Shown here: positions 1 to 57,058 of the stretch, piece after piece
How positions within the stretch are numbered: the stretch's first letter is position 1
Layout: the number at the start of each line of letters is the position of its first letter
Origin: Escherichia coli
GTDB lineage: Bacteria > Pseudomonadota > Gammaproteobacteria > Enterobacterales > Enterobacteriaceae
Strand: one strand, 5' to 3'
NCBI RefSeq assembly: GCF_030384885.1
Contig: NZ_CP128613.1
Length of the DNA: 64,000 bases
Made by a program: the position numbers and the translations under genes
The notes under the pieces: generated by a model
What the model was told of the DNA's origin: nothing
Seen by the model: only the letters and a program-made list of their open reading frames with translations
Databases searched by the model: none

Positions 1-994
1 GCACCGTTCCGGCGATCAGCTGAAAATCACTGCTCACCTGGCGATCGCTACCAAACGGGTAAAAGGTTTTCTCTTCAATGGCTTTTAGCAACATTGCCTG
101 TTCGTCTGCGCCCAGTTCGCCAATCTCATCAAGAAACAACATGCCGCCGTTGGCACTGCGTAATAATCCTTCACGAGATTCCCGCGCCCCGGTAAACGCG
201 CCTTTTACATGACCAAACAGCGTCGACATGGCGGTATCACCGCGCAGGGTGGCGCAGTTCACTTCCACAAACGCGCCGCTAAACTGATGCCGCGCCTGTT
301 TTAACTCGAAGATGCGTCGTGCCAGAAACGACTTTCCCGCACCGGTCGGGCCGTTAAGCAGGATCGGTGCGCGGGATTTGATCGCCACTTTTTCGATCTG
401 CTCAATCATGCGGTTGAAGTGGGCGTTACGCGTGGCAATGCCGGATTTGAGGAAATCGAGGGTTTGCTGGCGTTCTTCGGCAAAGCGGCTGGCGATGGCG
501 TTATAACGGCTTAAATCGAGATCGATAATCGTCACTTCACCTGCGCCGCGCGGTTGTTCTTTTTTGCGCGGTGGTGAAGATTGTATCAACCGGGCGGGCA
601 AGTAACGCGCTTCTGCCAGCAGAAACCAGCAAATCTGCGCGACGTGGGTACCGGTGGTGATGTGAATTAAATAGTCTTCTTTATCAGGTTCGAACGCGTA
701 ACCACGGGCGAAATCATGCAGGCAGGCGTAAACCTCCTCGAAATCCCACGGGTTATGCAGTTCAATCTCAACGCTCACCACTTCTGTTTCTGGCGAAACA
801 TTGGCGATATCGCGTTTAAGCGTTTCAAACAGCGAGCGTGAGCGGGCGTCGTGCAACAATTCCAGTCGATTGATGACTAACGATTCTTGCTGGCATAGAC
901 AGAGTGACGGACGCCATTTCGACCATCGCTGACTGCCGCGCCCGGCATAATCCAGTACGGTGCCGACAAAGCCAAAAGCCACTGTTTTACGCAT
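1..994 (-). CDS. rtcR: Sigma-54-dependent transcriptional activator RtcR, N-terminal part only; the 3' end of the gene lies beyond the window start
   Basis: Reverse-strand translation from ATG (complement of 992-994) reads MRKTVAFGFVGTVLDYAGRGSQRW..., matching remembered RtcR; divergent from rtcBA with a sigma-54 promoter between them. The track ORF 312-506(+) is antisense to it. Confidence 0.85.
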   Translation of the reverse strand, partial: MRKTVAFGFVGTVLDYAGRGSQRWSKWRPSLCLCQQESLVINRLELLHDARSRSLFETLKRDIANVSPETEVVSVEIELHNPWDFEEVYACLHDFARGYAFEPDKEDYLIHITTGTHVAQICWFLLAEARYLPARLIQSSPPRKKEQPRGAGEVTIIDLDLSRYNAIASRFAEERQQTLDFLKSGIATRNAHFNRMIEQIEKVAIKSRAPILLNGPTGAGKSFLARRIFELKQARHQFSGAFVEVNCATLRGDTAMSTLFGHVKGAFTGARESREGLLRSANGGMLFLDEIGELGADEQAMLLKAIEEKTFYPFGSDRQVSSDFQLIAGTV

Positions 995-1127
995 CTTAGA
1001 TATCCTTATAAAAGACGATATTTCATTATCGGCGAATTGGCTTTGCGGGAAATCTCCGCTTACGGACGTAAAGATTTAATCTATTAAAAACAATGAATTA
1101 AAAAATTAAGCTGCTTATTTAATTTTC

Positions 1128-1143
1128 TGGCACGACGGTTGCA
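1128..1143 (+). promoter_or_regulatory. Sigma-54 (-24/-12) promoter for rtcBA
   Basis: TGGCAC-gacgg-TTGCA is a perfect match to the TGGCAC-N5-TTGCW consensus, about 40 bp upstream of the rtcB ATG. Confidence 0.8.
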
Positions 1144-1181
1144 ATTATCAGGACAGCAAACAACGAAAAGAGAAAAACAAA

Positions 1182-2408
1182 ATGAATTACGAATTACTGA
1201 CCACTGAAAATGCCCCGGTAAAAATGTGGACCAAAGGCGTGCCGGTAGAGGCCGATGCGCGTCAGCAACTTATTAATACGGCGAAGATGCCGTTTATTTT
1301 CAAACATATTGCGGTAATGCCGGATGTACACCTGGGTAAAGGTTCCACCATTGGTAGCGTGATCCCAACCAAAGGAGCGATTATTCCGGCGGCGGTGGGG
1401 GTAGATATCGGTTGTGGAATGAACGCACTGCGAACTGCGTTAACGGCGGCTGACCTGCCTGAAAACCTGGCGGAGCTGCGTCAGGCGATTGAAACTGCCG
1501 TGCCGCACGGACGTTCCAATAATCGTAGCCGTCGTGATAAAGGCGCATGGGAGCATCCGCCTGTTAACGTCGATGCTAAATGGGCCGAGCTGGAAGCTGG
1601 TTATCAGTGGTTAACGCAAAAATATCCGCGTTTCCTTAACACTAATAACTATAAACATCTGGGAACGCTGGGAACGGGTAACCACTTTATTGAAATCTGC
1701 CTTGATGAGTCGGACCAGGTGTGGATTATGCTGCACTCCGGTTCACGCGGAATTGGTAATGCCATCGGGACTTACTTTATCGATCTGGCACAAAAAGAGA
1801 TGCAGGAAACGCTTGAAACGTTGCCATCGCGTGACCTGGCGTACTTTATGGAAGGTACGGAATACTTTGATGATTACCTGAAAGCGGTGGCCTGGGCGCA
1901 GCTTTTTGCCAGCCTTAACCGCGATGCGATGATGGAAAATGTGGTAACGGCGTTGCAGAGCGTTACGCAGAAAACGGTAAGACAGCCACAAACGCTGGCG
2001 ATGGAAGAGATCAACTGTCACCACAACTATGTGCAAAAAGAACAGCACTTTGGCGAAGAGATCTATGTGACGCGTAAAGGCGCGGTGTCTGCGCGTGCTG
2101 GTCAATATGGAATTATTCCCGGTTCGATGGGGGCGAAAAGCTTTATTGTCCGTGGGCTGGGAAATGAAGAGTCGTTCTGTTCGTGCAGCCACGGTGCCGG
2201 GCGGGTAATGAGCCGTACTAAAGCGAAAAAACTGTTCAGCGTGGAAGATCAAATTCGTGCCACCGCGCATGTGGAATGCCGTAAAGATGCCGAAGTGATC
2301 GACGAAATCCCGATGGCGTATAAAGATATCGACGCGGTGATGGCGGCACAAAGCGATCTGGTGGAAGTTATCTACACCCTGCGTCAGGTGGTGTGTGTAA
2401 AAGGATAA
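1182..2408 (+). CDS. rtcB: RNA-splicing ligase RtcB
   Basis: 408 aa ORF; MNYELLTTENAPVKMWTKGVPVEADARQQL... matches remembered RtcB. Confidence 0.95.
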   Translation: MNYELLTTENAPVKMWTKGVPVEADARQQLINTAKMPFIFKHIAVMPDVHLGKGSTIGSVIPTKGAIIPAAVGVDIGCGMNALRTALTAADLPENLAELRQAIETAVPHGRSNNRSRRDKGAWEHPPVNVDAKWAELEAGYQWLTQKYPRFLNTNNYKHLGTLGTGNHFIEICLDESDQVWIMLHSGSRGIGNAIGTYFIDLAQKEMQETLETLPSRDLAYFMEGTEYFDDYLKAVAWAQLFASLNRDAMMENVVTALQSVTQKTVRQPQTLAMEEINCHHNYVQKEQHFGEEIYVTRKGAVSARAGQYGIIPGSMGAKSFIVRGLGNEESFCSCSHGAGRVMSRTKAKKLFSVEDQIRATAHVECRKDAEVIDEIPMAYKDIDAVMAAQSDLVEVIYTLRQVVCVKG

Positions 2409-3428
<1,020 letters not shown>

Positions 3429-3470
3429 TATAAAGATGTAAGCCGGAACCGACGTATTATCCGGCTAAAC

Positions 3471-6182
<2,712 letters not shown>

Positions 6183-6698
6183 TCACTTCACTGTGGAAAA
6201 TGAGGAAATATTATTTTTTTTGCGCTTCGTAATTAATGGTTATAAGGTCGGCCAGAAACCCTTCTAATGCAAGCGATGACGTTTTTTTATGTGTCTGAAT
6301 TTGCACTGTGTCACAATTCCAAATGTTTATTAACAACTCACCTAATAACGACGCTGATGCAGCGTGAATACTGGGTTTTACGGTATTTTCCTCATGTTCA
6401 TCAGTTTCATTTAAGCAAGGGAGTCTTCTCAATTCCTGATGAAAGAGCCATCTAAAAAGAGGATCTTAATAAACCTATTAAGAATGAGATGGAACAAACT
6501 GGATGTTTTACTTATGAAACTGTTTCACTCCTTTACTTAATTTATAGAGTTACCTTCCGCCTTTTGAAAATACACAACGGCCATTTTTTGCACCTAGATA
6601 CAGATTTTCTGCGCTGTATGGCATTGATTTGCTGCTAATCCTGTGGATTGCACTAGGTTTAAGTGGTCGAGATCACATTTCCTTGCTCATCCCCGCAA

Positions 6699-6728
6699 CT
6701 CCTCCCTGCCTAATCCCCCGCAGGATGA
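6699..6728 (+). promoter_or_regulatory. Candidate MalT boxes of the malPQ promoter
   Basis: GGATGA at 6723-6728 and the reverse complement of GGAGGA at 6699-6704, matching the GGA(T/G)GA MalT box, 70-100 bp upstream of malP. Confidence 0.5.
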
Positions 6729-6775
6729 GGAAGGTCAACATCGAGCCTGGCAAACTAGCGATAACGTTGTGTTGA

Positions 6776-9193
<2,418 letters not shown>

Positions 9194-9202
9194 GGAAGCT
9201 CG

Positions 9203-11287
9203 ATGGAAAGCAAACGTCTGGATAATGCCGCGCTGGCGGCGGGGATCAGCCCCAATTACATCAATGCCCACGGTAAACCGCAGTCGATTAGCGCCGAAAC
9301 CAAACGGCGTTTGCTTGACGCGATGCATCAACGTACCGCCACGAAAGTGGCGGTAACGCCAGTCCCGAATGTCATGGTCTATACCAGCGGCAAAAAAATG
9401 CCGATGGCGGTGGAGGGCAGCGGCGAATATAGCTGGCTGCTGACCACCGAAGAAGGAACGCAGTACAAAGGCCATGTAACGGGGGGCAAAGCGTTCAATT
9501 TACCGACGAAGTTGCCGGAAGGTTATCACACGTTGACACTCACCCAGGACGACCAGCGCGCGCATTGCCGGGTGATTGTCGCCCCGAAACGCTGTTACGA
9601 ACCGCAGGCGTTGCTGAATAAACAAAAGCTGTGGGGCGCCTGCGTCCAGCTTTATACGCTGCGATCGGAAAAAAACTGGGGTATTGGGGATTTTGGCGAT
9701 CTCAAAGTGATGCTGGTGGATGTGGCAAAACGTGGCGGGGCTTTCATCGGTCTGAACCCGATTCATGCGCTCTATCCGGCAAATCCGGAAAGTGCCAGTC
9801 CGTATAGCCCGTCTTCTCGTCGCTGGCTAAATGTGGTTTATATCGACGTTAACGCCGTCGAAGATTTCCATCTTAGCGAAGAGGCTCAGGCCTGGTGGCA
9901 GTTACCGACCACGCAACAGACGCTGCAACAGGCACGGGATGCCGACTGGGTCGATTACTCCACCGTCACTGCGCTGAAAATGACAGCATTGCGGATGGCG
10001 TGGAAAGGTTTTGCGCAACGTGATGATGAGCAGATGGCCGCGTTTCGCCAGTTTGTTGCAGAGCAGGGCGACAGCCTGTTCTGGCAGGCGGCGTTTGACG
10101 CGTTACATGCCCAGCAAGTGAAAGAAGACGAAATGCGCTGGGGCTGGCCTGCATGGCCAGAGATGTATCAGAACGTGGATTCACCAGAAGTGCGTCAGTT
10201 CTGCGAAGAACATCGTGATGACGTCGATTTTTATCTCTGGTTGCAGTGGCTGGCTTACAGCCAGTTTGCCGCCTGCTGGGAGATAAGCCAGGGCCATGAA
10301 ATGCCGATTGGCTTGTACCGTGATCTGGCGGTTGGCGTAGCAGAGGGTGGAGCAGAAACCTGGTGCGACCGGGAGTTGTATTGCCTGAAAGCGTCGGTGG
10401 GCGCGCCGCCGGATATCCTCGGCCCGTTGGGGCAGAACTGGGGATTGCCGCCGATGGATCCGCATATCATCACCGCGCGTGCCTATGAACCGTTTATCGA
10501 GCTGTTGCGTGCCAATATGCAAAACTGCGGCGCGTTGCGAATTGACCATGTGATGTCGATGCTGCGTTTGTGGTGGATACCGTATGGCGAGACGGCAGAT
10601 CAGGGCGCGTATGTTCACTATCCGGTAGATGATCTGCTCTCGATTCTGGCACTCGAAAGTAAGCGCCATCGCTGCATGGTGATTGGTGAAGACCTCGGCA
10701 CTGTACCGGTAGAGATTGTCGGTAAACTGCGCAGCAGCGGTGTGTACTCCTACAAAGTGCTCTATTTCGAAAGCGACCACGAGAAGACATTCCGCGCGCC
10801 GAAAGCGTATCCGGAGCAGTCGATGGCGGTTGCGGCGACACACGACCTGCCTACACTGCGTGGCTACTGGGAGAGCGGGGATTTAACACTGGGCAAAACG
10901 CTGGGGCTGTACCCGGATGAAGTGGTATTGCGCGGTCTGTATCAGGATCGCGAACTGGCGAAGCAAGGGTTACTGGATGCACTGCATAAACATGGTTGCC
11001 TGCCAAAACGTGCGGGGCATAAGGCATCGTTAATGTCGATGACGCCGATGCTTAATCGTGGTTTGCAACGTTATATCGCTGATAGTAACAGTGCTCTGTT
11101 AGGGCTTCAGCCAGAAGACTGGCTGGATATGGCCGAACCGGTAAATATTCCCGGAACCAGTTACCAGTATAAAAACTGGCGGCGCAAGCTTTCCGCAACG
11201 CTTGAGACGATGTTTGCTGATGATGGCGTGAACAAGTTGCTGAAGGATTTGGACAGACGGCGCAGAGCGGCTGCGAAGAAGCAGTAG
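9203..11287 (+). CDS. malQ: 4-alpha-glucanotransferase (amylomaltase)
   Basis: 694 aa; MESKRLDNAALAAGISPNYINAHGKPQ...; 9 bp downstream of the malP stop. Confidence 0.97.
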   Translation: MESKRLDNAALAAGISPNYINAHGKPQSISAETKRRLLDAMHQRTATKVAVTPVPNVMVYTSGKKMPMAVEGSGEYSWLLTTEEGTQYKGHVTGGKAFNLPTKLPEGYHTLTLTQDDQRAHCRVIVAPKRCYEPQALLNKQKLWGACVQLYTLRSEKNWGIGDFGDLKVMLVDVAKRGGAFIGLNPIHALYPANPESASPYSPSSRRWLNVVYIDVNAVEDFHLSEEAQAWWQLPTTQQTLQQARDADWVDYSTVTALKMTALRMAWKGFAQRDDEQMAAFRQFVAEQGDSLFWQAAFDALHAQQVKEDEMRWGWPAWPEMYQNVDSPEVRQFCEEHRDDVDFYLWLQWLAYSQFAACWEISQGHEMPIGLYRDLAVGVAEGGAETWCDRELYCLKASVGAPPDILGPLGQNWGLPPMDPHIITARAYEPFIELLRANMQNCGALRIDHVMSMLRLWWIPYGETADQGAYVHYPVDDLLSILALESKRHRCMVIGEDLGTVPVEIVGKLRSSGVYSYKVLYFESDHEKTFRAPKAYPEQSMAVAATHDLPTLRGYWESGDLTLGKTLGLYPDEVVLRGLYQDRELAKQGLLDALHKHGCLPKRAGHKASLMSMTPMLNRGLQRYIADSNSALLGLQPEDWLDMAEPVNIPGTSYQYKNWRRKLSATLETMFADDGVNKLLKDLDRRRRAAAKKQ

Positions 11288-22624: not shown

Positions 22625-24693
<2,069 letters not shown>

Positions 24694-24700
24694 ATAAAAC

Positions 24701-24730
24701 GGGAGGAGAAGGAGCCTCCTGTTTTATTTT
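24701..24730 (+). terminator. Probable intrinsic terminator after envZ
   Basis: AGGAG...CTCCT inverted repeat followed by GTTTTATTTT. Confidence 0.5.
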
Positions 24731-24856
24731 GTGCACTCAGTATCTACTGAATGAATACGGTCTCAGACATCGGCACCATACGAAGTAAAGTGTACTGTAA
24801 GCTGATTGCAGGCTAGCGTATCCTGATTAGTAAAAGCACACTAAAGGAATAGCTTG

Positions 24857-26140
24857 ATGCAACTTACCAACGAAGAACAAGTACAGATTGCTCGTATAAA
24901 AGAAAAAATCCCACGCATTGCCGCACTGGATCCTGAATGTAAGTTATTCGGTTCTGAAGGTTGGAAATATCAATGGCCGAAGCCTGCCAGCGAGGCGGAA
25001 ATAGCTTCCTGGGAGAAAAAACATAGCGTCACTTTGCCACGGGAATATCGAATTTTTCTTCGCTATATCGCTAATGGCGGTCCGGCACATGCCTACGGTC
25101 TTGAATCTTTAGGCGGTACAGATATTTATGGCGATATAACAAAAGAAAGCCCTGTACCGCTTTATATGACGCAGCAGGATGTTGATGTGTTGAATGCTGG
25201 CCGTACAGAAGATGATGAAGAATATAGTTTTTTTGACGGCGCATTGACCATTCTCACCCTGGGATGTACTTATGATATTTGCCTGGTGGTGACGGGGCAG
25301 TATCGCGGAAGGTTAATGCTGACTGATGGTGATGAAGATTATCCGTTTGATTTTATATATGATAAAAATTTCCTCAACTGGTATGAACGCTGGCTGGACG
25401 ATTTTATTGCTGGCATGAGTATGAAGGGTTTCGATAGAAGTTTGCCAGGAACGCAAATTCAACTGCGTGAGTGGTTTTTAACTGAGAAAATCCCGGATTT
25501 ACGTAGATCCATTTTATTCTCGCTATGCCGTTTTCCACAGATAGAACCCGAAACTTTTGCCCTTTGGGAACATGTTTGCCGTACAGAGAATGATAAAGAA
25601 TTGTGTGAAGAGGCATTCATAAGATTACGCCAAAAAAAAGTTTCTTGTGCTGCAGATATTTTTCGACTCTATTTTGCAATGTCAGATGAATTACGTGATA
25701 TTGCTATTAAAGATCTCCGTTTTGCCTGTAGAGATAGTGTGGTGAATATTGAGGATTATATTCATTCACTGTTAATAATAATGCCTGAACTTGACGATGA
25801 CACTCTATCCTCAGCTGTCTTTGCTATACGAGAAACAGAGTATAATAAATATGATACTTTTCTGCCGCTTCTCGAACGTATCACTGATGACCGTCAGCAA
25901 ACATTATTGTGGGCGATGAGTAAGGCGCCTGATTTCAATGAAAGCCGAGGATTCGTTGAGTTGGTATTACCGCTTTTTGCATCATCAAAGATGGAGAATG
26001 TAAGGAAGGCTATTTTGTTGCTCATTGAAGTTAAAGATAATCGTATTCCACCATTGGTTGATGAAGCTGCAACTCGTTTCCCTGAACTGACCATTTTACG
26101 AGAAAACTACTATCTCAGGACGTGGGGACATAAGCCATAA
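24857..26140 (+). CDS. Accessory protein: SMI1/KNR4 (SUKH-1)-like N-terminal domain plus about 230 aa helical C-terminal extension
   Basis: N-terminus carries the SMI1/KNR4 signature (EAEIASWEKKHSVTLPREYRIFLRYIANGG ... DYPFDFIYDKNFLNWYERWLDDF). ATG at 24857 has RBS AAGGA 9 bp upstream; the track used TTG at 24854. AT-richer than flanks by eye; no K-12 counterpart remembered at this locus. Confidence 0.7.
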   Translation: MQLTNEEQVQIARIKEKIPRIAALDPECKLFGSEGWKYQWPKPASEAEIASWEKKHSVTLPREYRIFLRYIANGGPAHAYGLESLGGTDIYGDITKESPVPLYMTQQDVDVLNAGRTEDDEEYSFFDGALTILTLGCTYDICLVVTGQYRGRLMLTDGDEDYPFDFIYDKNFLNWYERWLDDFIAGMSMKGFDRSLPGTQIQLREWFLTEKIPDLRRSILFSLCRFPQIEPETFALWEHVCRTENDKELCEEAFIRLRQKKVSCAADIFRLYFAMSDELRDIAIKDLRFACRDSVVNIEDYIHSLLIIMPELDDDTLSSAVFAIRETEYNKYDTFLPLLERITDDRQQTLLWAMSKAPDFNESRGFVELVLPLFASSKMENVRKAILLLIEVKDNRIPPLVDEAATRFPELTILRENYYLRTWGHKP

Positions 26141-26177
26141 ATTAATGGTTCAGAAATGATCTAACGCGGAGAAAAAT

Positions 26178-26708
26178 ATGATCAGGGAACATATTCAGCA
26201 AGCGATAAATAATAGGTTAGCATTTGATGGCCCATTCAATGTTGTTCCTGAACCTGCAAGCACTGCGTTTGATAGCCGGATCCCGACATTGAAAAACGGT
26301 GTCTGGCAGAAGGCCAGCCCTATGTTGCAGGCGCGTTTTGCACATTGTGGACGTTGGTTAAGCGCTACACATGGAAGCTGGCTAAGTATAAGTGACATGG
26401 AAACGCTTTGGCAGGAACACATAGAAGATACGTTTCTTGATGAAATCAAAATGAATGCTGTAGCTTCAAGTGATAATTGGGATAACCATGCCTTGGGACT
26501 ATTTCGTTCTCATCGCCTGTCACTTTTTGCCGGTAGTGATTACAGTTATGAAATGGTTTTTCTCCTTTGGCTAGATAGTACCGTTGAGCCAGAGGTCTGG
26601 GTTTATGACTGCAATGGGGAATCACGTTATAAAGATCTTAATGATTACCTGAATGCATATATTAATGATGACGTAAGCGCCTGTGAGCGCTCTTGGCGAG
26701 TAGAATGA
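26178..26708 (+). CDS. Accessory small protein (176 aa), uncharacterised, possibly SUKH/immunity-like
   Basis: C-terminal segment EPEVWVYDCNGESRYKDLNDYLNAYIND resembles the C-terminal block of SUKH-type proteins; RBS GGAG 7 bp upstream; same strand as and 37 bp after the preceding ORF. Confidence 0.55.
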   Translation: MIREHIQQAINNRLAFDGPFNVVPEPASTAFDSRIPTLKNGVWQKASPMLQARFAHCGRWLSATHGSWLSISDMETLWQEHIEDTFLDEIKMNAVASSDNWDNHALGLFRSHRLSLFAGSDYSYEMVFLLWLDSTVEPEVWVYDCNGESRYKDLNDYLNAYINDDVSACERSWRVE

Positions 26709-27331
26709 ATAGCCCCCCTTGCCCCTTTGATCCACAAACCGCACATTACCTCGGCACAGTGCAAATCCACTACACCTCAACCACCTTCAACGCTGCCGTT
26801 AAGCATTATACCTATCACATTAAAAAGCGTTTTAAAGGGGTTAAATGGGGAATTGGTACCGCTGGCTTATTGGCTATATTGCCCATGATCCCACAATGGT
26901 TGAAACCTTCTCATGACTTTAAACTCAACGCAATCAGTACGTTAATTCTTCTATTAATGTTGCCACTCCTCTTATCAATGTTCCTGTTAATCAGCAGAAG
27001 AATTAACGATTTTAAGTCAAAAACAAAGCAAGTTACTTTTACGAAACCCGTGCGTTATGCGTTTTATTTCGAGGGGATTGTTTTTTATGAATCTCATCAG
27101 CAGGGCATACTTCGCTGGGAAGATTTTTATGGCATTGAGTATGAAGAAGATTATTTGTGGCTTTTTCTGCATTTACCGAAGAGTTTTCCCAGAGAAGCGA
27201 CGAAAGCGTTTTGCGATATTTTCATTCCCACCAGTGCGATAAAAGCGCAGCCTGAACTGGATACGTTTTTTCGTGAAACACGCCACTCGCTGGATTATCT
27301 GTTTGTCCCGTTTAATTCTGACAGAAAATAA
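26705..27331 (+). CDS. Accessory membrane protein, YcxB-like (two TM helices plus C-terminal bPH-like domain)
   Basis: ATG at 26705 overlaps the upstream TGA stop (ATGA); the track used TTG at 26693. Two hydrophobic helices (WGIGTAGLLAILPMIPQWL; ISTLILLLMLPLLLSMFLLI) then ...ILRWEDFYGIEYEEDYLWLFLHLPKSF..., typical of YcxB-like proteins. Confidence 0.6.
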   Translation: MNSPPCPFDPQTAHYLGTVQIHYTSTTFNAAVKHYTYHIKKRFKGVKWGIGTAGLLAILPMIPQWLKPSHDFKLNAISTLILLLMLPLLLSMFLLISRRINDFKSKTKQVTFTKPVRYAFYFEGIVFYESHQQGILRWEDFYGIEYEEDYLWLFLHLPKSFPREATKAFCDIFIPTSAIKAQPELDTFFRETRHSLDYLFVPFNSDRK

Positions 27332-27334
27332 CAT

Positions 27335-27362
27335 ATCCCCCGTATCTGGTGAAACGGGGGAT
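27335..27362 (-). terminator. Hairpin terminator downstream of pckA, at the island boundary
   Basis: ATCCCCCGT-atctggtgaa-ACGGGGGAT, a 9 bp stem followed on the minus strand by ATGTTATTTTCT. Confidence 0.6.
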
Positions 27363-27383
27363 TTCGTCGCTTAACTTATCGGA

Positions 27384-29006
27384 TTACAGTTTTGGACCAG
27401 CCGCTACCAGCGCGGCACCCGCTGGGGTGTCGGTGTATTTATCGAAGTTGTCGATAAACAGTTTCGCCAGAGTTTCGGCTTTTTCCTGCCACTGTTCAGG
27501 AGAAGCGTAGGTGTTACGCGGATCGAGGATCTTAGTGTCTACGCCCGGCAGTTCAGTCGGGATTGCCAGGTTAAACATCGGCAAAGTGAAGGTTTCTGCG
27601 TTATCCAGCGAACCGTTGAGGATGGCGTCGATAATGGCGCGGGTATCTTTAATGGAGATACGTTTGCCAGTACCGTTCCAGCCAGTGTTAACCAGATATG
27701 CCTGCGCACCCGCCGCTTGCATACGTTTCACCAGCACTTCTGCGTACTGAGTTGGGTGCAGCGACAGGAACGCCGCGCCGAAGCAAGCGGAGAAGGTTGG
27801 CGTCGGTTCGGTGATGCCACGTTCAGTACCGGCCAGTTTGGCGGTGAAGCCAGAGAGGAAGTGGTACTGAGTTTGATCGGCAGTCAGGCGAGAAACCGGC
27901 GGCAGCACACCAAAGGCGTCTGCGGTCAGGAAGATAACTTTAGTTGCGTGGCCCGCTTTGGAAACCGGTTTAACGATGTTATCGATGTGATAGATCGGAT
28001 AAGAAACGCGGGTGTTCTCGGTTTTTGAACCATCGTCAAAATCGATAGTGCCATCTTCACGTACGGTGACGTTTTCCAGCAGCGCATCGCGACGGATAGC
28101 GTTGTAGATTTCAGGTTCCGCTTCTTTCGACAGCTTGATGGTTTTCGCGTAGCAGCCGCCTTCGAAGTTAAACACGCCGTCGTCATCCCAGCCGTGCTCG
28201 TCATCGCCAATCAGGCGACGTTTCGGGTCGGTGGAAAGGGTGGTTTTACCGGTGCCGGAAAGGCCAAAGAACACCGCAACATCGCCTTTCTCGCCAACGT
28301 TGGCGGAGCAGTGCATAGAAGCGATGCCTTTCAGCGGCAGCAGGTAGTTCATCATCGAGAACATCCCTTTCTTCATTTCGCCGCCGTACCAGGTACCGCC
28401 AATCAACTGCATACGCTCGGTCAGGTTAAACGCCACGAAGTTTTCAGAGTTCAGCCCCTGCTCTTTCCACTGGGGGTTAGTGCATTTTGCGCCGTTCATA
28501 ACGATAAAGTCAGGTTTAAAACCAGCCAGCTCTTCATCGCTCGGGCGAATAAACATGTTTTTGACAAAATGCGCCTGCCAGGCCACTTCGGTGATGAAAC
28601 GGACGGAAAGACGCGTGTCTGGGTTCGCACCACAGAAAGCGTCGACAACGAACAGACGTTTGCCAGAAAGCTGTTTGGTCACCAGGCCCTTCAGATGCTG
28701 CCAGGTTTCCGGAGAGAGAGGTTTGTTGTCGTTCTTACCTTTGCCTTTATCAGCCCACCAGAAGGTATCGCGAGTGGTATCGTCACGGACGATATACTTA
28801 TCTTTTGGTGAGCGACCGGTGAATATACCGGTATCGACGGCAACGGCACCCAGATTAGTTAACACCCCGCGCTCATAACCTGTCAGGCTCGGATCGAGCT
28901 CTTCCTGATACAGCAGGTCGTAGCTTGGGTTGTAAACGATATCATGTACGTCACTGATACCATAAGCCTCGAGTTCTTGCGGGGTCAAACCATTGTTAAC
29001 GCGCAT
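27384..29006 (-). CDS. pckA: Phosphoenolpyruvate carboxykinase (ATP)
   Basis: Recognised protein begins [30 protein letters not shown]... (540 aa); the track ORF starts 23 codons upstream. Confidence 0.95.
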
Positions 29007-31109: not shown

Positions 31110-31177
31110 CAATGCGTATTTGATTTTTTATCGGATACGACGCTTTATCTTACCAACAATAACTTGCGAATTATTGC

Positions 31178-31206
31178 GTAGGCCTGGTAAGCGCAGCGCA
31201 TCAGGC
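31178..31206. repeat. REP element between yhgE and hslO
   Basis: Reverse complement reads GCCTGATGCGCTGCGCTTACCAGGCCTAC, REP-like; a second hairpin TCCGGCAGAG...CTGCCGGA follows at about 31222-31245. Confidence 0.6.
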
Positions 31207-49345: not shown

Positions 49346-49544
49346 CAGTGCGAATTACCCTCTGCTCGCATTGTCGAATAAATCAATTCGTCATCACTCT
49401 GAAACCGGGGAAACCCGGTTTTTTATCCTCCTATTTGCAATAATCCGAAAAAATGTGAAGCGCCTCGCCGTTTCCACATCTCGCTGTTGCGCCTTATCTT
49501 CGAATTCCTGAATATATAAATATTCAATTTAATGAAAATTTACT

Positions 49545-50450
49545 ATGCGTCGAACGTTTATCAAAAAAGAAGGCGTCGTCATCACGACACTGGCCCGTTA
49601 TTTGTTGGGTGAAAAATGCGGTAATCGACTGAAAACCATAGATGAACTGGCAACTGAATGCCATTCATCCGTTGGCCTGACGCAGGCCGCGTTGAAAACG
49701 CTGGAATCAAGCGGTGCGATACGAATTAAACGCCGCGGGCGCAATGGCAGTTATCTGGTGGAAATGGATAACAAAGCACTGCTGAGTCATGTGGATATCA
49801 ACAACGTTGTGTGTGCCATGCCCTTGCCCTATACCCGCTTGTACGAAGGTTTAGCGAGTGGACTGAAAGCTCAGTTTGATGGCACTCCTTTTTATTATGC
49901 GCATATGCGCGGCGCGGATATTCGTGTGGAGTGTTTACTTAACGGCGTGTATGACATGGCGGTGGTTTCCCGACTGGCGGCAGAAAGTTATCTCACGCAA
50001 AAAGGCTTATGCCTCGCGCTGGAGTTGGGGCCGCATACCTACGTTGGTGAGCATCAGTTGATTTGCCGTAAAGGAGAGGCTGCAAAGGTGAAACGCGTGG
50101 GGTTGGATAACCGTTCGGCGGATCAGAAAATCATGACCGATGTCTTTTTTGGCGATAGTGATGTGGAACGAGCCGATCTCTCTTATCACGAGAGTTTACA
50201 ACGCATTGTTAAAGGCGATGTCGATGCGGTGATCTGGAATGTGGTAGCGGAGAGCGAACTGGCCATGCTGGGATTAGAAGCGATGCCACTGACGAACGAT
50301 CCGCGATTTTTACAGGCTACTGAAGCCGTGATACTAACGCGTGCCGATGATTACCCAATGCAACAACTACTACGTACGGTTGTAGATAAACATGCCCTGC
50401 TTGCTCATCAACAGCGAGTAGTCAGTGGGGAACAGGAACCCAGTTATTAA
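49545..50450 (+). CDS. yhfZ: Putative transcriptional regulator YhfZ
   Basis: 301 aa; MRRTFIKKEGVVITTLARYLLGEKCGNRLKTIDELATECHSSVGLTQAALKTLE... with N-terminal HTH-like segment; first gene of the yhfZ-yhfS cluster. Confidence 0.8.
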   Translation: MRRTFIKKEGVVITTLARYLLGEKCGNRLKTIDELATECHSSVGLTQAALKTLESSGAIRIKRRGRNGSYLVEMDNKALLSHVDINNVVCAMPLPYTRLYEGLASGLKAQFDGTPFYYAHMRGADIRVECLLNGVYDMAVVSRLAAESYLTQKGLCLALELGPHTYVGEHQLICRKGEAAKVKRVGLDNRSADQKIMTDVFFGDSDVERADLSYHESLQRIVKGDVDAVIWNVVAESELAMLGLEAMPLTNDPRFLQATEAVILTRADDYPMQQLLRTVVDKHALLAHQQRVVSGEQEPSY

Positions 50451-50466
50451 ACGAAAGGCATCTGAA

Positions 50467-50829
50467 ATGGAAACCAGACTCAACCTGCTTTGTGAGGCAG
50501 GCGTTATTGATAAGGACATCTGCAAAGGCATGATGCAGGTCGTCAACGTACTGGAAACAGAGTGTCATCTACCGGTACGCAGCGAGCAAGGAATGATGGC
50601 GATGACACATATGGCGAGCGCACTGATGCGCAGTCGCCGTGGTGAAGAAATAGAGCCGTTGGATGACGAATTGCTGGCAGAGCTGGCGCAATCCAGCCAC
50701 TGGCCAGCCATTTTACAATTGCATCAGGTGTTGTTGAAGGAATTCGCACTGGAAGTTAACCCGTGTGAAGAAGGCTATTTGCTGGCCAATCTTTATGGAT
50801 TATGGATGGCCGCTAACGAAGAGGTCTGA
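50467..50829 (+). CDS. yhfY: Uncharacterised protein YhfY
   Basis: METRLNLLCEAGVIDKDICKGMMQVVNV... (120 aa); the track ORF starts 14 codons upstream. Confidence 0.75.
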   Translation: METRLNLLCEAGVIDKDICKGMMQVVNVLETECHLPVRSEQGMMAMTHMASALMRSRRGEEIEPLDDELLAELAQSSHWPAILQLHQVLLKEFALEVNPCEEGYLLANLYGLWMAANEEV

Positions 50830-50912
50830 ATCTCCCGGCAAATCCACGTCGCGCATCTTAAATATTCAAAAAAATGAATATTTAATTCAAGGAACAGAAA
50901 CGAGGCAACAAG

Positions 50913-52076
50913 ATGTTTGTAGAAGCATTGAAACGCCAGAACCCGGCACTGATTTCCGTCGCACTCAGTTTGTGGCAACAGGGCAAAATCGCCCCGGACA
51001 GTTGGGTAATCGACGTCGATCAGGTACTGGAAAACGGTAAGCGGCTGATTGAGACGGCACGGCTTTACGGTATTGAACTGTATCTGATGACCAAACAGTT
51101 CGGTCGTAATCCGTGGCTGGCAGAAAAACTGCTGGCGCTGGGTTACAGCGGCATTGTGGCGGTGGATTACAAAGAGGCACGAATCATGCGCCGCGCAGGT
51201 TTATCGGTGGCGCATCAGGGGCATCTGGTACAAATCCCTTGTCATCAGGTTGCTGACGCCGTTGAACAGGGCACCGACGTCATCACCGTGTTTACCCTCG
51301 ATAAAGCGCGGGAAGTTTCTGCCGCAGCGGTGACGGCCGGGCGGGTCCAGCCTGTGCTGCTCAAAGTTTATAGCGACGATGATTTTCTTTATCCGGGGCA
51401 GGAGAGCGGTTTTGCACAGCATTCGCTGCATGAGGTGGTTGCTGAAATCCAGAAACTACCGGGGTTACATTTAGCCGGATTAACCCATTTCCCTTGCCTG
51501 CTATGGGATGAGGCTGCCGGGAAAGTTTTGCCAACACCGAACCTCCAGACGCTGGTCAATGCTCGTAACCAACTTCTGAAGTCTGGAGTTGTACTTGAGC
51601 AATTAAACGCGCCTTCAGCGACCAGCTGCACTTCGCTGCCATTACTGGCGGAATACGGTGTGACTCATGCCGAACCCGGCCATGCACTGACGGGGACGAT
51701 TCCGGCAAACCAGCAGGGCGACCAACCTGAACGTATCGCCATGCTTTGGTTAAGTGAAATTTCCCATCACTTCCGTGGCGACAGTTATTGCTATGGCGGT
51801 GGCTATTACCGTCGTGGGCATGCGCATAACGCACTGGTATTTACGCCAGAAAATCAAAGCATTACTGAAACATATCTCAAAGCCGTAGATGACAGCAGTA
51901 TCGACTACACCCTGCCGCTGGCAGGCGAGCATTCGGTAAGCAGTGCTGTGGTGCTCTGCTTTCGCACGCAGATTTTTGTCAGCCGTAGCGATGTGGTGCT
52001 GGTATCGGGTATTCAGCGCGGCGCGGCAGAAATTGTGGGGCGTTATGACAGCCTCGGTAACCCTCTGGAGGCGTAA
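50913..52076 (+). CDS. yhfX: Putative PLP-dependent enzyme YhfX (alanine-racemase-fold-like)
   Basis: 387 aa; [36 protein letters not shown]... Confidence 0.8.
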
Positions 52077-53302
52077 TGGCGCGATTTGTGGTGTTAGTGA
52101 TTGATAGCTTTGGCGTAGGCGCAATGAAAGATGTCATGTTGGTGCGCCCACAGGATGCCGGGGCGAATACCTGTGGTCACATCCTGAGCCAGTTGCCGCA
52201 TTTGCAGCTACCAACGCTGGAGAAAATGGGGCTAATCAACGCATTAGGTTATGCGCCAGGCGATATGCAGCCGTCAGACTCCGCAACCTGGGGCGTGGCA
52301 GAGTTGCAACATGAAGGTGGCGACACCTTTATGGGGCATCAGGAAATTTTAGGCACGCGCCCGTTACCGCCGCTGCGGATGCCCTTTCGCGATGCGATTG
52401 ACCGTGTTGAACAGGCATTAGTCACCGCTGGCTGGTGGGTTGAGCGCCGTGGCGATGATCTGCAATTTCTGTGGGTCAATCAGGCGGTTGCGATTGGCGA
52501 TAATCTCGAGGCGGATTTAGGCCAAGTCTATAACATTACCGCCAATCTCTCTGTGATCTCTTTTGACGACGCAATCAAAATTGGTCGTATCGTGCGTGAC
52601 CAGGTACAGGTCGGTCGGGTCATTACATTTGGCGGCCTGTTAACCGACAGTCAGCGTATTCTCGATGCCGCAGAAAGCAAAGAAGGGCGCTTTATTGGCA
52701 TCAACGCGCCGCGTTCTGGCGCTTATGACAACGGTTTCCAGGTCGTGCATATGGGCTATGGCGTCGATGAAAAAGTGCAGGTGCCACAAAAACTGTATGA
52801 AGCAGGCGTGCCAACCGTGCTGGTGGGTAAGGTGGCAGATATCGTCAGCAATCCTTATGGCGTGAGCTGGCAAAACCTGGTGGATAGCCAGCGGATTATG
52901 GATATCACCCTCGACGAATTTAACACGCATCCGACGGCGTTTATTTGCACCAACATTCAGGAAACTGACCTCGCTGGTTACGCAGAAGACGTCGCACGCT
53001 ATGCCGAACGTTTGCAGGTGGTTGACCGTAACCTTGCCCGGCTTGTTGAGGCGATGCAGCCAGATGATTGCCTGGTCGTGATGGCGGATCACGGTAACGA
53101 TCCGACCATTGGTCACAGCCACCATACCCGTGAAGTAGTGCCAGTGCTGGTTTATCAGCAAGGGCTGGTCCACACGCAACTCGGTGTGCGCACCACGCTT
53201 TCTGATGTGGGGGCTACCGTGTGTGAATTTTTCCGTGCGCCACCGCCACAAAATGGTCGCTCTTTTCTTTCCTCCCTCCGGTTTGCAGGAGACACCCTAT
53301 GA
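52076..53302 (+). CDS. yhfW: Putative phosphopentomutase-like metalloenzyme YhfW
   Basis: 408 aa; [35 protein letters not shown]..., resembling phosphopentomutase/alkaline-phosphatase superfamily N-termini. Confidence 0.8.
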
Positions 53303-54177
53303 GTTTTGATCCGACGGGCTTCACCCTCGCCCATGAGCATCTGCATATTGATCTCTCCGGCTTTAAAAACAACGTGGACTGCCGCCTTGATCAGTATGCG
53401 TTCATTTGCCAGGAGATGAACGACCTGATGGCACTGGGTGTGCGTAATGTGATTGAGATGACCAACCGTTACATGGGGCGCAATGCACAATTTATGCTCG
53501 ATGTAATGCACGAGACGGGGATCAACGTGGTGGCCTGCACCGGTTATTACCAGGACGCGTTTTTCCCGCAACATGTGGCGACCCGCAGCGTGCAGGAACT
53601 GGCGCAGGAGATGGTCGATGAAATTGAACAGGGTATCGATGGCACGGAGCTGAAAGCCGGGATCATCGCGGAGATCGGCTCCAGCGAAGGAAAGATTACG
53701 CCGCTGGAAGAGAAGGTGTTTATTGCCGCCGCGTTGGCGCATAACCAGACCGGATGCCCCATCTCCACGCATACGTCGTTCAGCACTATGGGGCTGGAGC
53801 AATTGGCTCTGTTGCAAGCCCACGGAGTTGATCTTTCGCGCGTCACCGTCGGGCACTGCGATCTGAAAGACAACCTCGACAACATTTTGAAGATGATCGA
53901 TCTCGGCGCGTATGTGCAGTTCGACACCATCGGCAAGAACAGTTACTACCCGGACGAAAAGCGCATTGCGATGCTCCACGCGCTACGTGACCGTGGTTTG
54001 CTGAACCGCGTCATGCTGTCGATGGATATTACGCGCCGCTCCCATTTAAAAGCCAACGGTGGTTATGGCTATGACTATTTATTGACCACCTTTATTCCGC
54101 AATTGCGCCAGTCAGGATTCAGTCAGGCCGATGTGGATGTGATGTTACGTGAAAATCCCTCTCAATTTTTCCAATAA
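53299..54177 (+). CDS. php: Phosphotriesterase homology protein (amidohydrolase superfamily)
   Basis: 292 aa; [32 protein letters not shown]...; HxH metal-binding motif. Confidence 0.88.
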
Positions 54178-54187
54178 GGACAGACTC

Positions 54188-54541
54188 ATGAAAAAGATTG
54201 GTGTTGCAGGCTTACAGCGTGAGCAGATTAAAAAAACCATTGAAGCGACGGCTCCTGGCTGTTTTGAAGTTTTCATTCACAACGACATGGAAGCGGCGAT
54301 GAAGGTGAAATCCGGGCAACTGGATTACTACATCGGCGCGTGTAATACCGGTGCGGGCGCGGCATTGTCGATTGCCATCGCGGTGATTGGCTATAACAAA
54401 AGTTGCACCATTGCCAAGCCGGGCATTAAAGCGAAAGACGAGCATATCGCCAAAATGATCGCCGAAGGGAAAGTGGCGTTTGGGCTTTCCGTTGAGCATG
54501 TCGAACACGCGATTCCGATGCTGATTAACCATCTGAAATAA
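54188..54541 (+). CDS. yhfU: Uncharacterised protein YhfU
   Basis: MKKIGVAGLQREQIKKTIEATAPG... (117 aa); the track ORF starts 13 codons upstream. Confidence 0.75.
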   Translation: MKKIGVAGLQREQIKKTIEATAPGCFEVFIHNDMEAAMKVKSGQLDYYIGACNTGAGAALSIAIAVIGYNKSCTIAKPGIKAKDEHIAKMIAEGKVAFGLSVEHVEHAIPMLINHLK

Positions 54542-54552
54542 AAGGCACGACT

Positions 54553-55857
54553 ATGGATCTGTATATTCAGATTATCGTGGTGGCGTGCCTGACGGGTATG
54601 ACATCGCTTCTGGCGCATCGCTCGGCAGCCGTTTTTCATGACGGTATCCGCCCGATCCTGCCGCAACTGATTGAAGGCTATATGAACCGTCGTGAGGCGG
54701 GGAGTATCGCTTTTGGTCTGAGCATTGGTTTTGTGGCCTCGGTGGGGATCTCTTTTACCCTGAAAACCGGGTTGCTCAACGCATGGTTACTCTTTCTTCC
54801 TACCGATATCCTCGGTGTCCTGGCGATAAACAGCCTGATGGCGTTTGGCCTTGGTGCACTCTGGGGCGTACTGATCCTCACCTGTCTGCTGCCGGTAAAC
54901 CAGCTGCTGACCGCGCTACCGGTGGATGTATTAGGTAGTCTGGGGGAATTAAGCTCGCCAGTGGTTTCAGCTTTTGCACTGTTCCCGTTGGTGGCGATTT
55001 TCTACCAGTTTGGCTGGAAGCAAAGTCTGATCGCCGCCGTGGTAGTGTTGATGACCCGTGTGGTGGTAGTGCGCTATTTCCCGCATCTCAATCCGGAATC
55101 CATCGAAATCTTTATTGGCATGGTGATGCTGCTGGGGATCGCGATAACTCACGACCTGCGTCATCGTGATGAAAATGACATCGATGCCAGCGGTATGTCG
55201 GTGTTTGAAGAACGTACGTCGAGGATTATCAAAAATTTACCCTATATCGCCATCGTAGGGGCGCTGATTGCCGCCGTTGCCAGCATGAAGATTTTTGCTG
55301 GTAGTGAAGTGTCGATCTTCACCCTGGAGAAAGCATATTCCGCAGGTGTAACGCCGGAACAATCACAAACGCTGATCAACCAGGCGGCGCTGGCGGAATT
55401 TATGCGCGGGCTGGGTTTTGTGCCGTTGATTGCCACCACCGCGTTAGCAACAGGTGTGTATGCAGTTGCGGGCTTTACCTTTGTTTATGCGGTGGGCTAT
55501 CTCTCGCCGAATCCGATGGTTGCGGCGGTATTAGGCGCAGTGGTTATTTCGGCAGAAGTCCTGTTACTTCGTTCGATCGGCAAATGGCTGGGACGCTACC
55601 CATCGGTACGTAATGCGTCGGATAACATCCGTAACGCCATGAATATGCTGATGGAAGTGGCTCTGCTGGTCGGTTCGATTTTCGCAGCAATTAAGATGGC
55701 GGGCTATACCGGATTCTCTATCGCGGTTGCCATTTACTTCCTCAACGAATCTCTGGGCCGTCCGGTACAGAAAATGGCGGCACCGGTCGTGGCAGTAATG
55801 ATCACTGGCATCCTGCTGAATGTTCTTTACTGGCTTGGTCTGTTCGTTCCGGCTTAA
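54553..55857 (+). CDS. yhfT: Inner membrane protein YhfT (putative transporter)
   Basis: 434 aa polytopic membrane protein; MDLYIQIIVVACLTGMTSLLAHRSAAVFHDG... Confidence 0.82.
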   Translation: MDLYIQIIVVACLTGMTSLLAHRSAAVFHDGIRPILPQLIEGYMNRREAGSIAFGLSIGFVASVGISFTLKTGLLNAWLLFLPTDILGVLAINSLMAFGLGALWGVLILTCLLPVNQLLTALPVDVLGSLGELSSPVVSAFALFPLVAIFYQFGWKQSLIAAVVVLMTRVVVVRYFPHLNPESIEIFIGMVMLLGIAITHDLRHRDENDIDASGMSVFEERTSRIIKNLPYIAIVGALIAAVASMKIFAGSEVSIFTLEKAYSAGVTPEQSQTLINQAALAEFMRGLGFVPLIATTALATGVYAVAGFTFVYAVGYLSPNPMVAAVLGAVVISAEVLLLRSIGKWLGRYPSVRNASDNIRNAMNMLMEVALLVGSIFAAIKMAGYTGFSIAVAIYFLNESLGRPVQKMAAPVVAVMITGILLNVLYWLGLFVPA

Positions 55858-55868
55858 AGAAGGCACCT

Positions 55869-56954
55869 ATGAAGACGTTTCCTTTGCAAAGCCTGACGCT
55901 TATTGAAGCGCAGCAAAAGCAGTTTGCGTTGGTGGATACGATTTGCCGCCATTTTCCCGGCGCGGAGTTTCTTACCCGCGGGGATTTAGGCTTAACGCCG
56001 GGGCTGAATCAACCGCGCATTACTCAGCGTGTGGAGCAGGTGCTGGCTGATGCGTTTCATGCGCCAGCGGCGGCGCTGGTGCAGGGCGCGGGTACTGGAG
56101 CAATTCGCGTCGGGCTGGCAGCTTTGCTCAAATCGGGGCAGCGTCTTCTGGTGCATGACGCGCCTGTTTACCCGACGACTCAGGTCATTATTGAGCAGAT
56201 GGGGCTGACGCTTATTACAGCTGATTTCAACGACCTGTCGGCGCTTAAAGAGGCCATTGAAGAGCAACAACCTGATGCCGCGCTGGTGCAGCATACGCGC
56301 CAGCAGCCGCAGGACAGCTATGTACTGGCAGATGTGCTGGCAACGCTGCGCGCAGCAGGTGTTCCAGCCTTAACCGATGACAACTATGCGGTGATGAAGG
56401 TGGCGCGCATTGGCTGTGAATGCGGCGCGAATGTTTCGACATTCTCCTGTTTCAAGCTGTTTGGACCAGAGGGTGTTGGCGCGGTGGTAGGCGATGCCGA
56501 TGTTATCAACCGTATTCGCGCTACGCTTTACTCTGGCGGCAGCCAGATTCAGGGCTCACAGGCGCTGGAAGTCTTGCGTGGTTTGGTGTTTGCGCCAGTG
56601 ATGCACGCGGTGCAGGCGGGGGTATCTGAACGGTTGCTGGCTTTACTTAACGGTGGCGCAGTGGCGGAAGTGAAAAGCGCGGTGATTGCCAATGCGCAGT
56701 CGAAGGTGTTGATTGTGGAGTTTCATCAACCGATTGCCGCCAGAGTGCTTAAAGAGGCGCAAAAGCGCGGCGCGTTGCCTTACCCGGTTGGTGCAGAGTC
56801 GAAATATGAGATCCCGCCGCTTTTTTATCGCCTTTCCGGAACGTTTCGCCAGGCGAATCCGCAATTAGAACATTGTGCGATTCGTATTAACCCGAATCGC
56901 AGCGGTGATGAGACGGTATTGCGGATTTTGCGCGAGAGTATTGCCAGCGTTTAA
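55869..56954 (+). CDS. yhfS: Putative PLP-dependent enzyme YhfS
   Basis: 361 aa; MKTFPLQSLTLIEAQQKQFALVDTICRHFPGAEFLTRGDLGLTPG... Confidence 0.8.
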   Translation: MKTFPLQSLTLIEAQQKQFALVDTICRHFPGAEFLTRGDLGLTPGLNQPRITQRVEQVLADAFHAPAAALVQGAGTGAIRVGLAALLKSGQRLLVHDAPVYPTTQVIIEQMGLTLITADFNDLSALKEAIEEQQPDAALVQHTRQQPQDSYVLADVLATLRAAGVPALTDDNYAVMKVARIGCECGANVSTFSCFKLFGPEGVGAVVGDADVINRIRATLYSGGSQIQGSQALEVLRGLVFAPVMHAVQAGVSERLLALLNGGAVAEVKSAVIANAQSKVLIVEFHQPIAARVLKEAQKRGALPYPVGAESKYEIPPLFYRLSGTFRQANPQLEHCAIRINPNRSGDETVLRILRESIASV

Positions 56955-56992
56955 TTCTGGGAACGATGTTTTCGCAGAGTATGGAGAAAAAT

Positions 56993-57018
56993 ACGCCCTC
57001 GGAAAATTCAGAGGGCGT
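56993..57018 (-). terminator. Hairpin terminator between convergent yhfS and yhfL
   Basis: ACGCCCTC-ggaaaattca-GAGGGCGT, an 8 bp stem; T-run on the minus strand downstream of the yhfL stop. Confidence 0.55.
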
Positions 57019-57058
57019 TAGCTCATTAAATCGGTGTTAGCCGATTTCTGTCAGAGAC

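Follow-up and report, generated by a model that had tools for sequence, protein, structure and literature searches.

Allelic replacement by recombination in conserved flanking genes is a general mechanism at loci such as O-antigen clusters. Proteins of the SUKH (SMI1/KNR4) superfamily, of which B. subtilis YobK is an example among immunity proteins, reportedly act as the immunity proteins of polymorphic toxin systems, a family concept said to go back to Zhang, Iyer and Aravind in 2011. Here we describe a locus with features of both, the spacer between the core genes envZ and pckA in a 64,000-nucleotide stretch of Escherichia coli DNA (RefSeq assembly GCF_030384885.1, contig NZ_CP128613.1; referred to hereafter as the window). 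Positions 24694–27383 comprise the whole of this spacer, from the envZ stop (24691–24693) to the minus-strand pckA stop (27384–27386), and contain three open reading frames (ORFs), all on the plus strand (24857–26140, 26178–26708 and 26705–27331). We consider that the spacer is probably an ancestral orphan-immunity islet that is fixed in E. coli cryptic clade I, is exchanged between lineages by recombination in its flanks, and has been lost or replaced in most other E. coli. The features referred to below are as follows.

23341–24693, plus strand: envZ, a 450-aa ORF annotated as EnvZ; left core flank and left homology arm
24696–24725, both strands: bidirectional terminator hairpin (fold −19.6 kcal/mol), common to all spacer alleles
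24726–24856, plus strand: leader of ORF1, specific to the clade I/E. albertii allele
24857–26140, plus strand: ORF1, 427 aa, with an N-terminal SUKH-1 (SMI1/KNR4) domain and a helical C-terminal part
26178–26708, plus strand: ORF2, 176 aa, predicted SUKH-fold protein of a family that has no Pfam model
26705–27331, plus strand: ORF3, 208 aa, with two transmembrane helices and a PH-like C-terminal domain; anchor gene on the pckA side
27335–27362, no strand assigned: right hairpin (stem 27335–27343/27354–27362; −18.6 kcal/mol on the plus strand, −22.6 kcal/mol on the minus strand, which is the pckA strand)
27363–27383, no strand assigned: 21-bp tail from the right hairpin to the pckA stop, conserved with the ORF3 module (8-lineage alignment)
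27384–29006, minus strand: pckA, encoding the 540-aa PckA; right core flank and right homology arm
920–1715 of locus L003 and 10110–10890 of locus L009, opposite orientation: the alternative RelE/ParE–NadS allele of the spacer, with its own pckA-side hairpin

The distribution of the cassette follows lineage. The window matches E. coli 2013C-4282 at 100% identity, a strain listed together with EC42405 as cryptic clade I (PMC10100065); this clade is monophyletic and sister to E. coli sensu stricto, to which its average nucleotide identity is >95.9%, and includes Shiga-toxin-producing human isolates (PMC10100065). The distance of the window's flanks to K-12 (~4%) agrees with that published identity, and its envZ, at ~96% identity to K-12, lies at the normal clade I distance. 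Of the 5426 complete E. coli genomes in the collection, 18 have the cassette, always at this locus and at 98.8–100% identity, and these same genomes are the 18 best matches for both mrcA (10 kb away) and yhfX–Z (23 kb away), a gap in the yhfX–Z matches dividing them from all others. The cassette is accordingly found in 18/18 clade I genomes of the collection and in 0 of the other 5408. All eight clade I copies that we examined are 2690 bp long and retain three intact ORFs (pN/pS, the ratio of nonsynonymous to synonymous polymorphism, 0.35–0.47; ORF1, with a value of 0.47, is intact in 8/8); diversity within the clade is ~1%, close to that of the flanks, and the first 163 bp of the cassette, with 8 variable sites, are among its most variable parts. 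The cassette may give clade I a fixed candidate defence against the toxins of other bacteria, and could perhaps serve as a lineage marker that E. albertii alone shares.

Elsewhere the spacer is multi-state, being occupied by this cassette, by no gene at all, by a RelE/ParE toxin and NadS antitoxin pair (1331 of the 5426 complete genomes, ST648 included), by an IS200 element, or by a single gene of 346 aa (hereafter F346). The IS200 state was observed in ETEC1738 (L004, ~900–1610), where an IS200/IS605 element with tnpA has inserted downstream of the envZ stop and ahead of the shared terminator hairpin, the rest of the spacer being of K-12 type.

Comparison with the K-12-type empty spacer (strain JME67) places the boundaries of the difference. 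The empty spacer is 75 bp long and is made up of the envZ-side hairpin and a 44-bp tail that runs to the pckA stop. Homology between window and K-12 stops after GTTTT at 24725, such that the left hairpin is the last K-12-homologous stretch on that side, and resumes at the pckA stop at 27384. The window lacks the 44-bp tail altogether, as opposed to carrying it in two parts around the cassette. Local alignment of the tail to the cassette ends gave p ~0.6–0.9 in every end comparison (2000 shuffles), and short-word BLAST against all related loci returned chance matches only; a by-eye likeness between the tail and the cassette start (TACTGGATAGATA vs TACTGAATGAATA) was rejected on the same shuffle values, and a global alignment with free gap extension strewed the tail across the cassette and was uninformative. 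Since the tail has no significant similarity to the cassette ends or to related alleles, the difference between the two spacers is a replacement rather than a clean insertion.

The two hairpins that bound the cassette differ in their history. The left hairpin (stem 24700–24706/24715–24721, with an A-run and a T-run) has the make-up of an intrinsic (rho-independent) terminator on both strands, is flagged on both by a terminator scan, and is found in the empty, toxin–antitoxin, IS200, F346 and clade I alleles; the leader that follows has a start common to clade I and E. albertii and unrelated to either the K-12 tail or the F346 leader. The right hairpin is missing in K-12 and is kept, together with its 21-bp tail (which has no similarity to the K-12 tail), in every lineage having ORF3, and is therefore part of the cassette. 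Across 8 lineages 95.7% of its alignment cells are paired, with one compensatory change (GC to AU, in Salmonella), although the covariation is weak in that the observed score is reached by 66/500 shuffles. On the pckA strand the sequence past the hairpin reads TTTTTTATTTT in most lineages and ATATGTTATTTT in this strain; the stem is strong and conserved, and a simple terminator scan did not flag the hairpin. The right hairpin would terminate the convergent pckA transcript in cassette-bearing lineages. An earlier, sequence-only reading of the window had described an insertion landing precisely between two intact terminators. Both hairpins do exist, but the pckA-side one is cassette-borne and absent from the K-12 empty spacer; only the envZ-side hairpin is common to both spacers, and the K-12 tail is replaced, hence the notion of a landing between two terminators fails. 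The alignment to the K-12 empty site suggested in that reading did locate breakpoints, at 24725 and 27384, though with no definable target duplication.

To date the locus we calculated synonymous divergence (dS; Nei–Gojobori) for ORF3 and its flanking genes in all genome pairs. Over 10 pairs drawn from five Escherichia lineages (clade I, E. albertii, E. whittamii, Escherichia sp. E4742 and E. coli A30), ORF3 dS spans 0.21–0.46 against 0.18–0.52 for envZ/pckA, with a ratio of ORF3 to flank mean of 0.83–1.14; A30 and E4742 show an even ~6.5% divergence across gene and flanks. As ORF3 dS tracks flank dS, ORF3 has co-diverged with its flanks since at least the split of E. albertii and E. coli. The gene is retained in A30, which belongs to E. 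coli sensu stricto and does not differ from K-12-like JME67 in its EnvZ and PckA proteins; co-divergence together with this retention implies that the K-12 empty spacer is the derived state, as is the RelE/ParE–NadS allele. Outside this set, ORF3 of MOD1-EC7003 is much older than its flanks (dS 0.7–1.1) and that of a rare Salmonella much younger (0.19–0.38, vs 0.8–1.0 for envZ and ompR). The polarity and age implied for the locus by the sequence-only reading are thereby overturned, with the cassette in 18/18 clade I genomes, an ORF3 that co-diverged with its flanks, and a derived K-12 state: relative to an "insertion" into K-12, it is the reference that shows a deleted, derived state and the "island" that is ancestral.

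We next consider what the cassette encodes. ORF1 matches the SUKH family model PF09346 over residues 43–152 (29.6 bits, cut-off 25.4). ORF2 has no Pfam match, SUKH models included; its predicted model can be superposed on SUKH structures that include Knr4 and YobK, and has the alpha+beta fold of that superfamily. A sequence search of the PDB with ORF1 and ORF2 gave nothing, NCBIfam gave nothing for any of the three ORFs, and no distant relative of ORF3 carries a Pfam family. No known anti-phage defence system was recovered by PADLOC, which returned no significant match and only a weak one between ORF3 and PycTM (E 0.02, 13 bits). The ORF1 family is very small (24 homologue clusters, some of which carry PF13646, HEAT_2), and its C-terminal helical part is HEAT-like in relatives, with no BLASTP similarity between the ORF1 C-terminus and the HEAT module of the 346-aa gene; ORF1 relatives away from envZ–pckA are lone genes in unrelated core intergenic sites of Klebsiella, Superficieibacter and E. 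coli. A kinship between ORF2 and the 170-aa neighbor of the Superficieibacter ORF1 homologue was considered and rejected, the proteins being unrelated.

Evidence that links the cassette to toxins comes from homologues of ORF2. In Pectobacterium (L027) the homologue lies 20 bp behind a gene for a PAAR-Rhs toxin, within an Hcp–VgrG–DcrB–Rhs cluster, and in E. coli 2016C-3878 (L037) it overlaps the end of an orphan Rhs C-terminal toxin gene (Rhs-CT) in an rhs array linked to a type VI secretion system (T6SS); both thus occupy the position of a cognate immunity gene, and the two toxins have in common the C-terminal domain that follows the DPxGL motif. The L037 paralog was also detected by DNA similarity in 30 other genomes, and in Corticimicrobacter a homologue lies among Imm11 and SUKH_6 genes. 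From these gene contexts the ORF2 family appears to hold the place of cognate immunity partner to one Rhs toxin family, and to be an orphan in the window, where no toxin gene adjoins the cassette genes. The window holds two SUKH-type genes with no toxin nearby, as in orphan arrays of immunity genes without cognate effectors, and a putative orphan immunity role is the most likely one for ORF1 and ORF2. We put forward the ORF2 family, which lacks a Pfam model, as a candidate SUKH-fold partner of a specific family of Rhs C-terminal toxins. The L037 array itself (181–9518) consists of a DUF2169 gene, a gene for a 1472-aa PAAR-like protein, small ORFs, and the orphan Rhs-CT with the ORF2-family gene, and continues with an Rhs core-CT and Imm11 gene and then ISAs1-family elements.

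Homologue searches combined with genomic-context look-ups showed that the envZ–pckA spacer also holds related cassettes in E. albertii, E. whittamii, the unclassified Escherichia strains E4742 and MOD1-EC7003, E. coli A30 and one rare Salmonella enterica. E. albertii has a broken ORF1, an ORF2 with 84% amino-acid identity to that of the window, and ORF3. The breaks in ORF1 differ between two E. albertii genomes (L021, 4681–5963, 295 + 153 aa; L031, 3099–4385, 211 + 179 aa), both of which have ORF2 and ORF3 intact, and this suggests that ORF1 is decaying in that species. E. whittamii, E4742 and A30 carry only the 346-aa gene, a fusion of an N-terminal HEAT-like module with the ORF3 body, and MOD1-EC7003 has a separate HEAT module followed by ORF2 and ORF3. 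In the Salmonella the HEAT module is followed by DUF6392/CdiI_5 cargo (PF19929, named CdiI_5 in one copy of Pfam and DUF6392 in another) with small fragment ORFs, and then by ORF3; this cargo splits the 346-aa gene at CACATTA|…|CCTCGG, with microhomology of only 2 nt. A metagenome contig (L018) has a broken HEAT module, ORF1 and ORF3 without ORF2, its flanks lying off the contig. These loci follow a common plan of envZ, terminator, an optional HEAT module, variable cargo of immunity type, ORF3, hairpin and pckA.

Several details of these relatives deserve record. The Salmonella cargo (L025, 4807–6033) looks like two tandem units, the one made up of a truncated copy of a 91-aa gene and a full DUF6392/CdiI_5 gene, the other of the full 91-aa gene and a truncated CdiI_5 gene fused to ORF3, and resembles orphan toxin-fragment/immunity arrays. 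In E. whittamii (L030, 4281–4549) the leader of the 346-aa gene contains an insert of ~270 bp with terminal inverted repeats and a TA duplication (AATTAATA|TACTCG…AGAGTA|TAAGAATGG), similar to a miniature inverted-repeat transposable element (MITE). In a further protein (P0066, 365 aa) the order is the opposite of that in the 346-aa gene, with the ORF3 body ahead of the HEAT-like module; that the two modules occur fused in both orders hints that they work together.

Evidence for the means by which alleles of this locus move comes from the Salmonella copy. Identity of L025 to E. coli is 81–85% through envZ, steps up to 93–97% from ~4270 (a point within the last envZ bases and the hairpin), remains high across the cassette and the 3′ 1.1 kb of pckA, and drops abruptly to 77–83% at ~7790. 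No such step is seen in Escherichia pairs, in which conservation peaks at the 5′ end of pckA. By this identity profile L025 appears to have imported ~3.5 kb of Escherichia-like sequence through crossovers in the homologous flanks: a small cassette would have crossed the boundary from Escherichia to Salmonella by flanking homology alone, at crossover points that can be mapped. Movement of alleles by homologous recombination in flanking core DNA is shown in this one case, and we infer it for the locus in general. The sequence-only reading had proposed acquisition by this same route; the mechanism holds for the Salmonella tract, but in the window's own lineage no local recombination tract lies beside the cassette in the 12 kb to each side, divergence being ~4% throughout against both K-12-like JME67 and ST648.

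Signatures of other means of mobility were sought. Pfam, NCBIfam and PADLOC detected no integrase or transposase among spacer ORFs in any frame, no recombinase occurs among the ORFs or annotation to about 6 kb on either side, no tRNA lies between 15 and 37 kb of the window, and Rfam yielded no family (sub-threshold noise only). No direct or inverted repeat pair joins the two boundaries beyond chance-level matches (an inverted pair at 24794–24806/27378–27390, 85% complementary, was taken as chance, being one of 74 similar pairs in 2.9 kb), and neither target duplication nor terminal repeats were found at 24725/27384. The spacer is without the integrase, tRNA/att target and flanking direct repeats of a site-specific genomic island, and without the transposase, terminal repeats and duplication of an insertion sequence, transposon or MITE, the K-12 tail being replaced and not duplicated. 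Plasmid and phage collections contain no close relative of any part of the cassette; the plasmid matches are distant only (SUKH/HEAT proteins of <60% amino-acid identity to ORF1, and one Sphingomonas match to ORF2). The earlier statement that integrase, transposase, tRNA/att site and boundary repeats are lacking was borne out by these scans, as was the view of a small immunity cassette in an intergenic hotspot, in that the cargo looks like immunity genes and the spacer is multi-state; our literature search found no mention of an envZ/pckA hotspot.

Taken together, these observations are best accommodated by a model in which an ORF3-containing islet was already in place between envZ and pckA in the common ancestor of E. 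albertii and E. coli, if not earlier. Its surviving forms outside clade I are the fused HEAT::ORF3 gene of 346 aa, HEAT with ORF2 and ORF3, the broken HEAT with ORF1 and ORF3 (L018), and HEAT with DUF6392/CdiI_5 and ORF3; in most E. coli sensu stricto the islet has been deleted, or swapped for the 44-bp tail or the RelE/ParE–NadS pair. Whole alleles would pass between lineages using envZ with its terminator as one arm and ORF3/pckA as the other, no element-encoded recombinase being needed. The SUKH proteins would bind and neutralize toxin domains injected by competitors, the likely target of ORF2 being the C-terminal toxin family of T6SS-delivered PAAR-Rhs proteins.

A number of observations sit uneasily with this model. 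The immunity role of the proteins is inferred; no examined context of an ORF1 homologue is toxin-linked, Knr4, FBXO3 and Syd, which are not immunity proteins, are among the fold matches of ORF2, no function could be assigned to ORF3 or to the HEAT module, and a scan of the plus strand of the leader and cassette for promoter-like sites found no consensus promoter. The Salmonella import tract is judged from the identity of L025 to E. coli. The three-gene form occurs in clade I and E. albertii and the fused 346-aa form in E. whittamii, E4742 and A30, a distribution that misfits a simple species tree and needs either an old polymorphism or several independent deletions. Furthermore, dS between clade I and E. 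albertii is 0.27 for ORF1 and 0.20 for ORF2, at the low end when set against the flanks (0.28–0.43), and synonymous polymorphism (pS) within clade I (8 genomes) is 0.0325 for ORF3 vs 0.0056 for ORF1 and 0.0087 for ORF2; the ORF1–ORF2 module may be younger than ORF3, having been swept or spread later.

Alternative explanations were weighed against the same data. That a foreign cassette recently entered a K-12-like empty spacer in this lineage, by flanking homologous recombination, seems unlikely to us: the GC content of the cassette is below that of its flanks, the cassette is missing from 5408/5426 E. coli genomes, it is free of mobility genes and repeats, and homologous-recombination import is seen at this locus in Salmonella, all as such an arrival would have it, but every clade I genome in the collection has the cassette, its diversity (~1%) is near flank level with no adjoining tract of unusual divergence, ORF3 dS matches flank dS against four other Escherichia lineages, and the K-12 tail is absent instead of being split. 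A decayed site-specific or transposable element, having lost its recombinase and end repeats, is very improbable. Other elements do enter the spacer (IS200/IS605 in ETEC1738, the MITE-like insert in E. whittamii) and the Salmonella cargo sits inside the 346-aa gene at a defined point; against these stand the lack of any integrase or transposase remnant in any frame, of terminal or direct repeats and tRNA, and of close plasmid or phage relatives, and the mere 2 nt of microhomology at the Salmonella cargo junctions.

The function of the islet admits of rivals also. SUKH and HEAT domains might be no more than generic protein-binding modules here, and the three genes could encode non-immunity accessory proteins with, for example, an envelope or stress role tied to EnvZ/OmpR, a possibility that draws on the Knr4, FBXO3 and Syd fold matches, the islet's long-fixed position behind envZ, the lack of an adjacent toxin gene, and a membrane protein (ORF3) of unassigned function. 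We regard this as doubtful, given that members of the ORF2 family in two genera partner a single family of Rhs toxin domains, with Imm11 and SUKH_6 genes as neighbors in a third genome, that the Salmonella slot carries CdiI_5/DUF6392 modules, that relatives of ORF1 are found at unrelated loci of Klebsiella, Superficieibacter and E. coli, and that cargo varies by lineage within a constant frame, as expected of immunity repertoires. An unrecognized anti-phage defense system made up of the three genes is the least probable of all; a small low-GC cassette in a variable intergenic site, one where a toxin–antitoxin pair is also found, and the weak match of ORF3 to PycTM (E 0.02), might invite it, but no gene has a significant PADLOC match, no nuclease, NTPase or other effector domain is present, and the positive evidence favors toxin immunity. 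Within the preferred model of an ancestral orphan immunity islet, we further entertain, as a long shot, that the HEAT-like module and ORF3, which are met either fused in both orders or parted by cargo, form a dedicated, recombinase-free docking slot for capturing and swapping immunity genes, or a membrane-anchored partner of the SUKH proteins, kept at envZ–pckA throughout the history of the genus.

The remaining features of the window place the islet in a core-gene setting. GC content is 0.36–0.46 in the spacer and 0.51–0.61 in the flanks, the annotated neighbors to about 6 kb on each side are core genes, and within the cassette the ORF3 ATG overlaps the ORF2 TGA (ATGA). Further away, the yhgE–hslO spacer (31116–31195) is ~80 bp longer than in K-12, with REP-like sequence (GCCTGGTAAGCGCAGCGCATCAGGC) and a separate hairpin, and the yhfZ–yhfS cluster (49400–59000) is unusually diverged, at ~7% from ST648 and 3–8% even among clade I genomes vs 1–2% elsewhere in the window.

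Set beside SUKH immunity proteins, the islet shares the SMI1_KNR4 Pfam match of ORF1, the superposition of the ORF2 model on Knr4/YobK, and homologues that lie behind Rhs toxins; it differs in having no adjacent toxin, in an ORF2 that falls outside the Pfam SUKH models, and in the extra helical domain of ~250 aa in ORF1. Like orphan arrays of the rAID type, it keeps immunity-type genes without a cognate toxin, and its cargo varies (ORF1, ORF2, and the Salmonella DUF6392/CdiI_5 genes with their toxin-fragment-like pieces). Those arrays have a tyrosine recombinase and a mobile-element context, whereas the islet is without both, lies between two core genes and does not adjoin a T6SS, rhs or cdi locus, predates the split of E. 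albertii and E. coli, and is framed by a conserved HEAT module and ORF3.

With O-antigen-type replacement the spacer has in common several unrelated alleles bounded in the same way by the envZ terminator and the pckA stop, and one recombinant with crossovers in the flanks, although the exchanged segment is very small (0.08–2.7 kb) and one arm is as short as the last envZ bases and the hairpin. The RelE/ParE–NadS allele is likewise set in the same boundaries and brings its own hairpin on the pckA side, yet its genes are unrelated and in the opposite orientation, with only the left hairpin sequence in common with the clade I cassette. What is new here is modest: the pairing of the ORF2 family with an Rhs toxin, the HEAT/ORF3 frame around a variable slot, and a clean inter-genus recombinant. 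The best explanation is that the islet belongs among the orphan or poly-immunity loci with SUKH proteins, a known kind.

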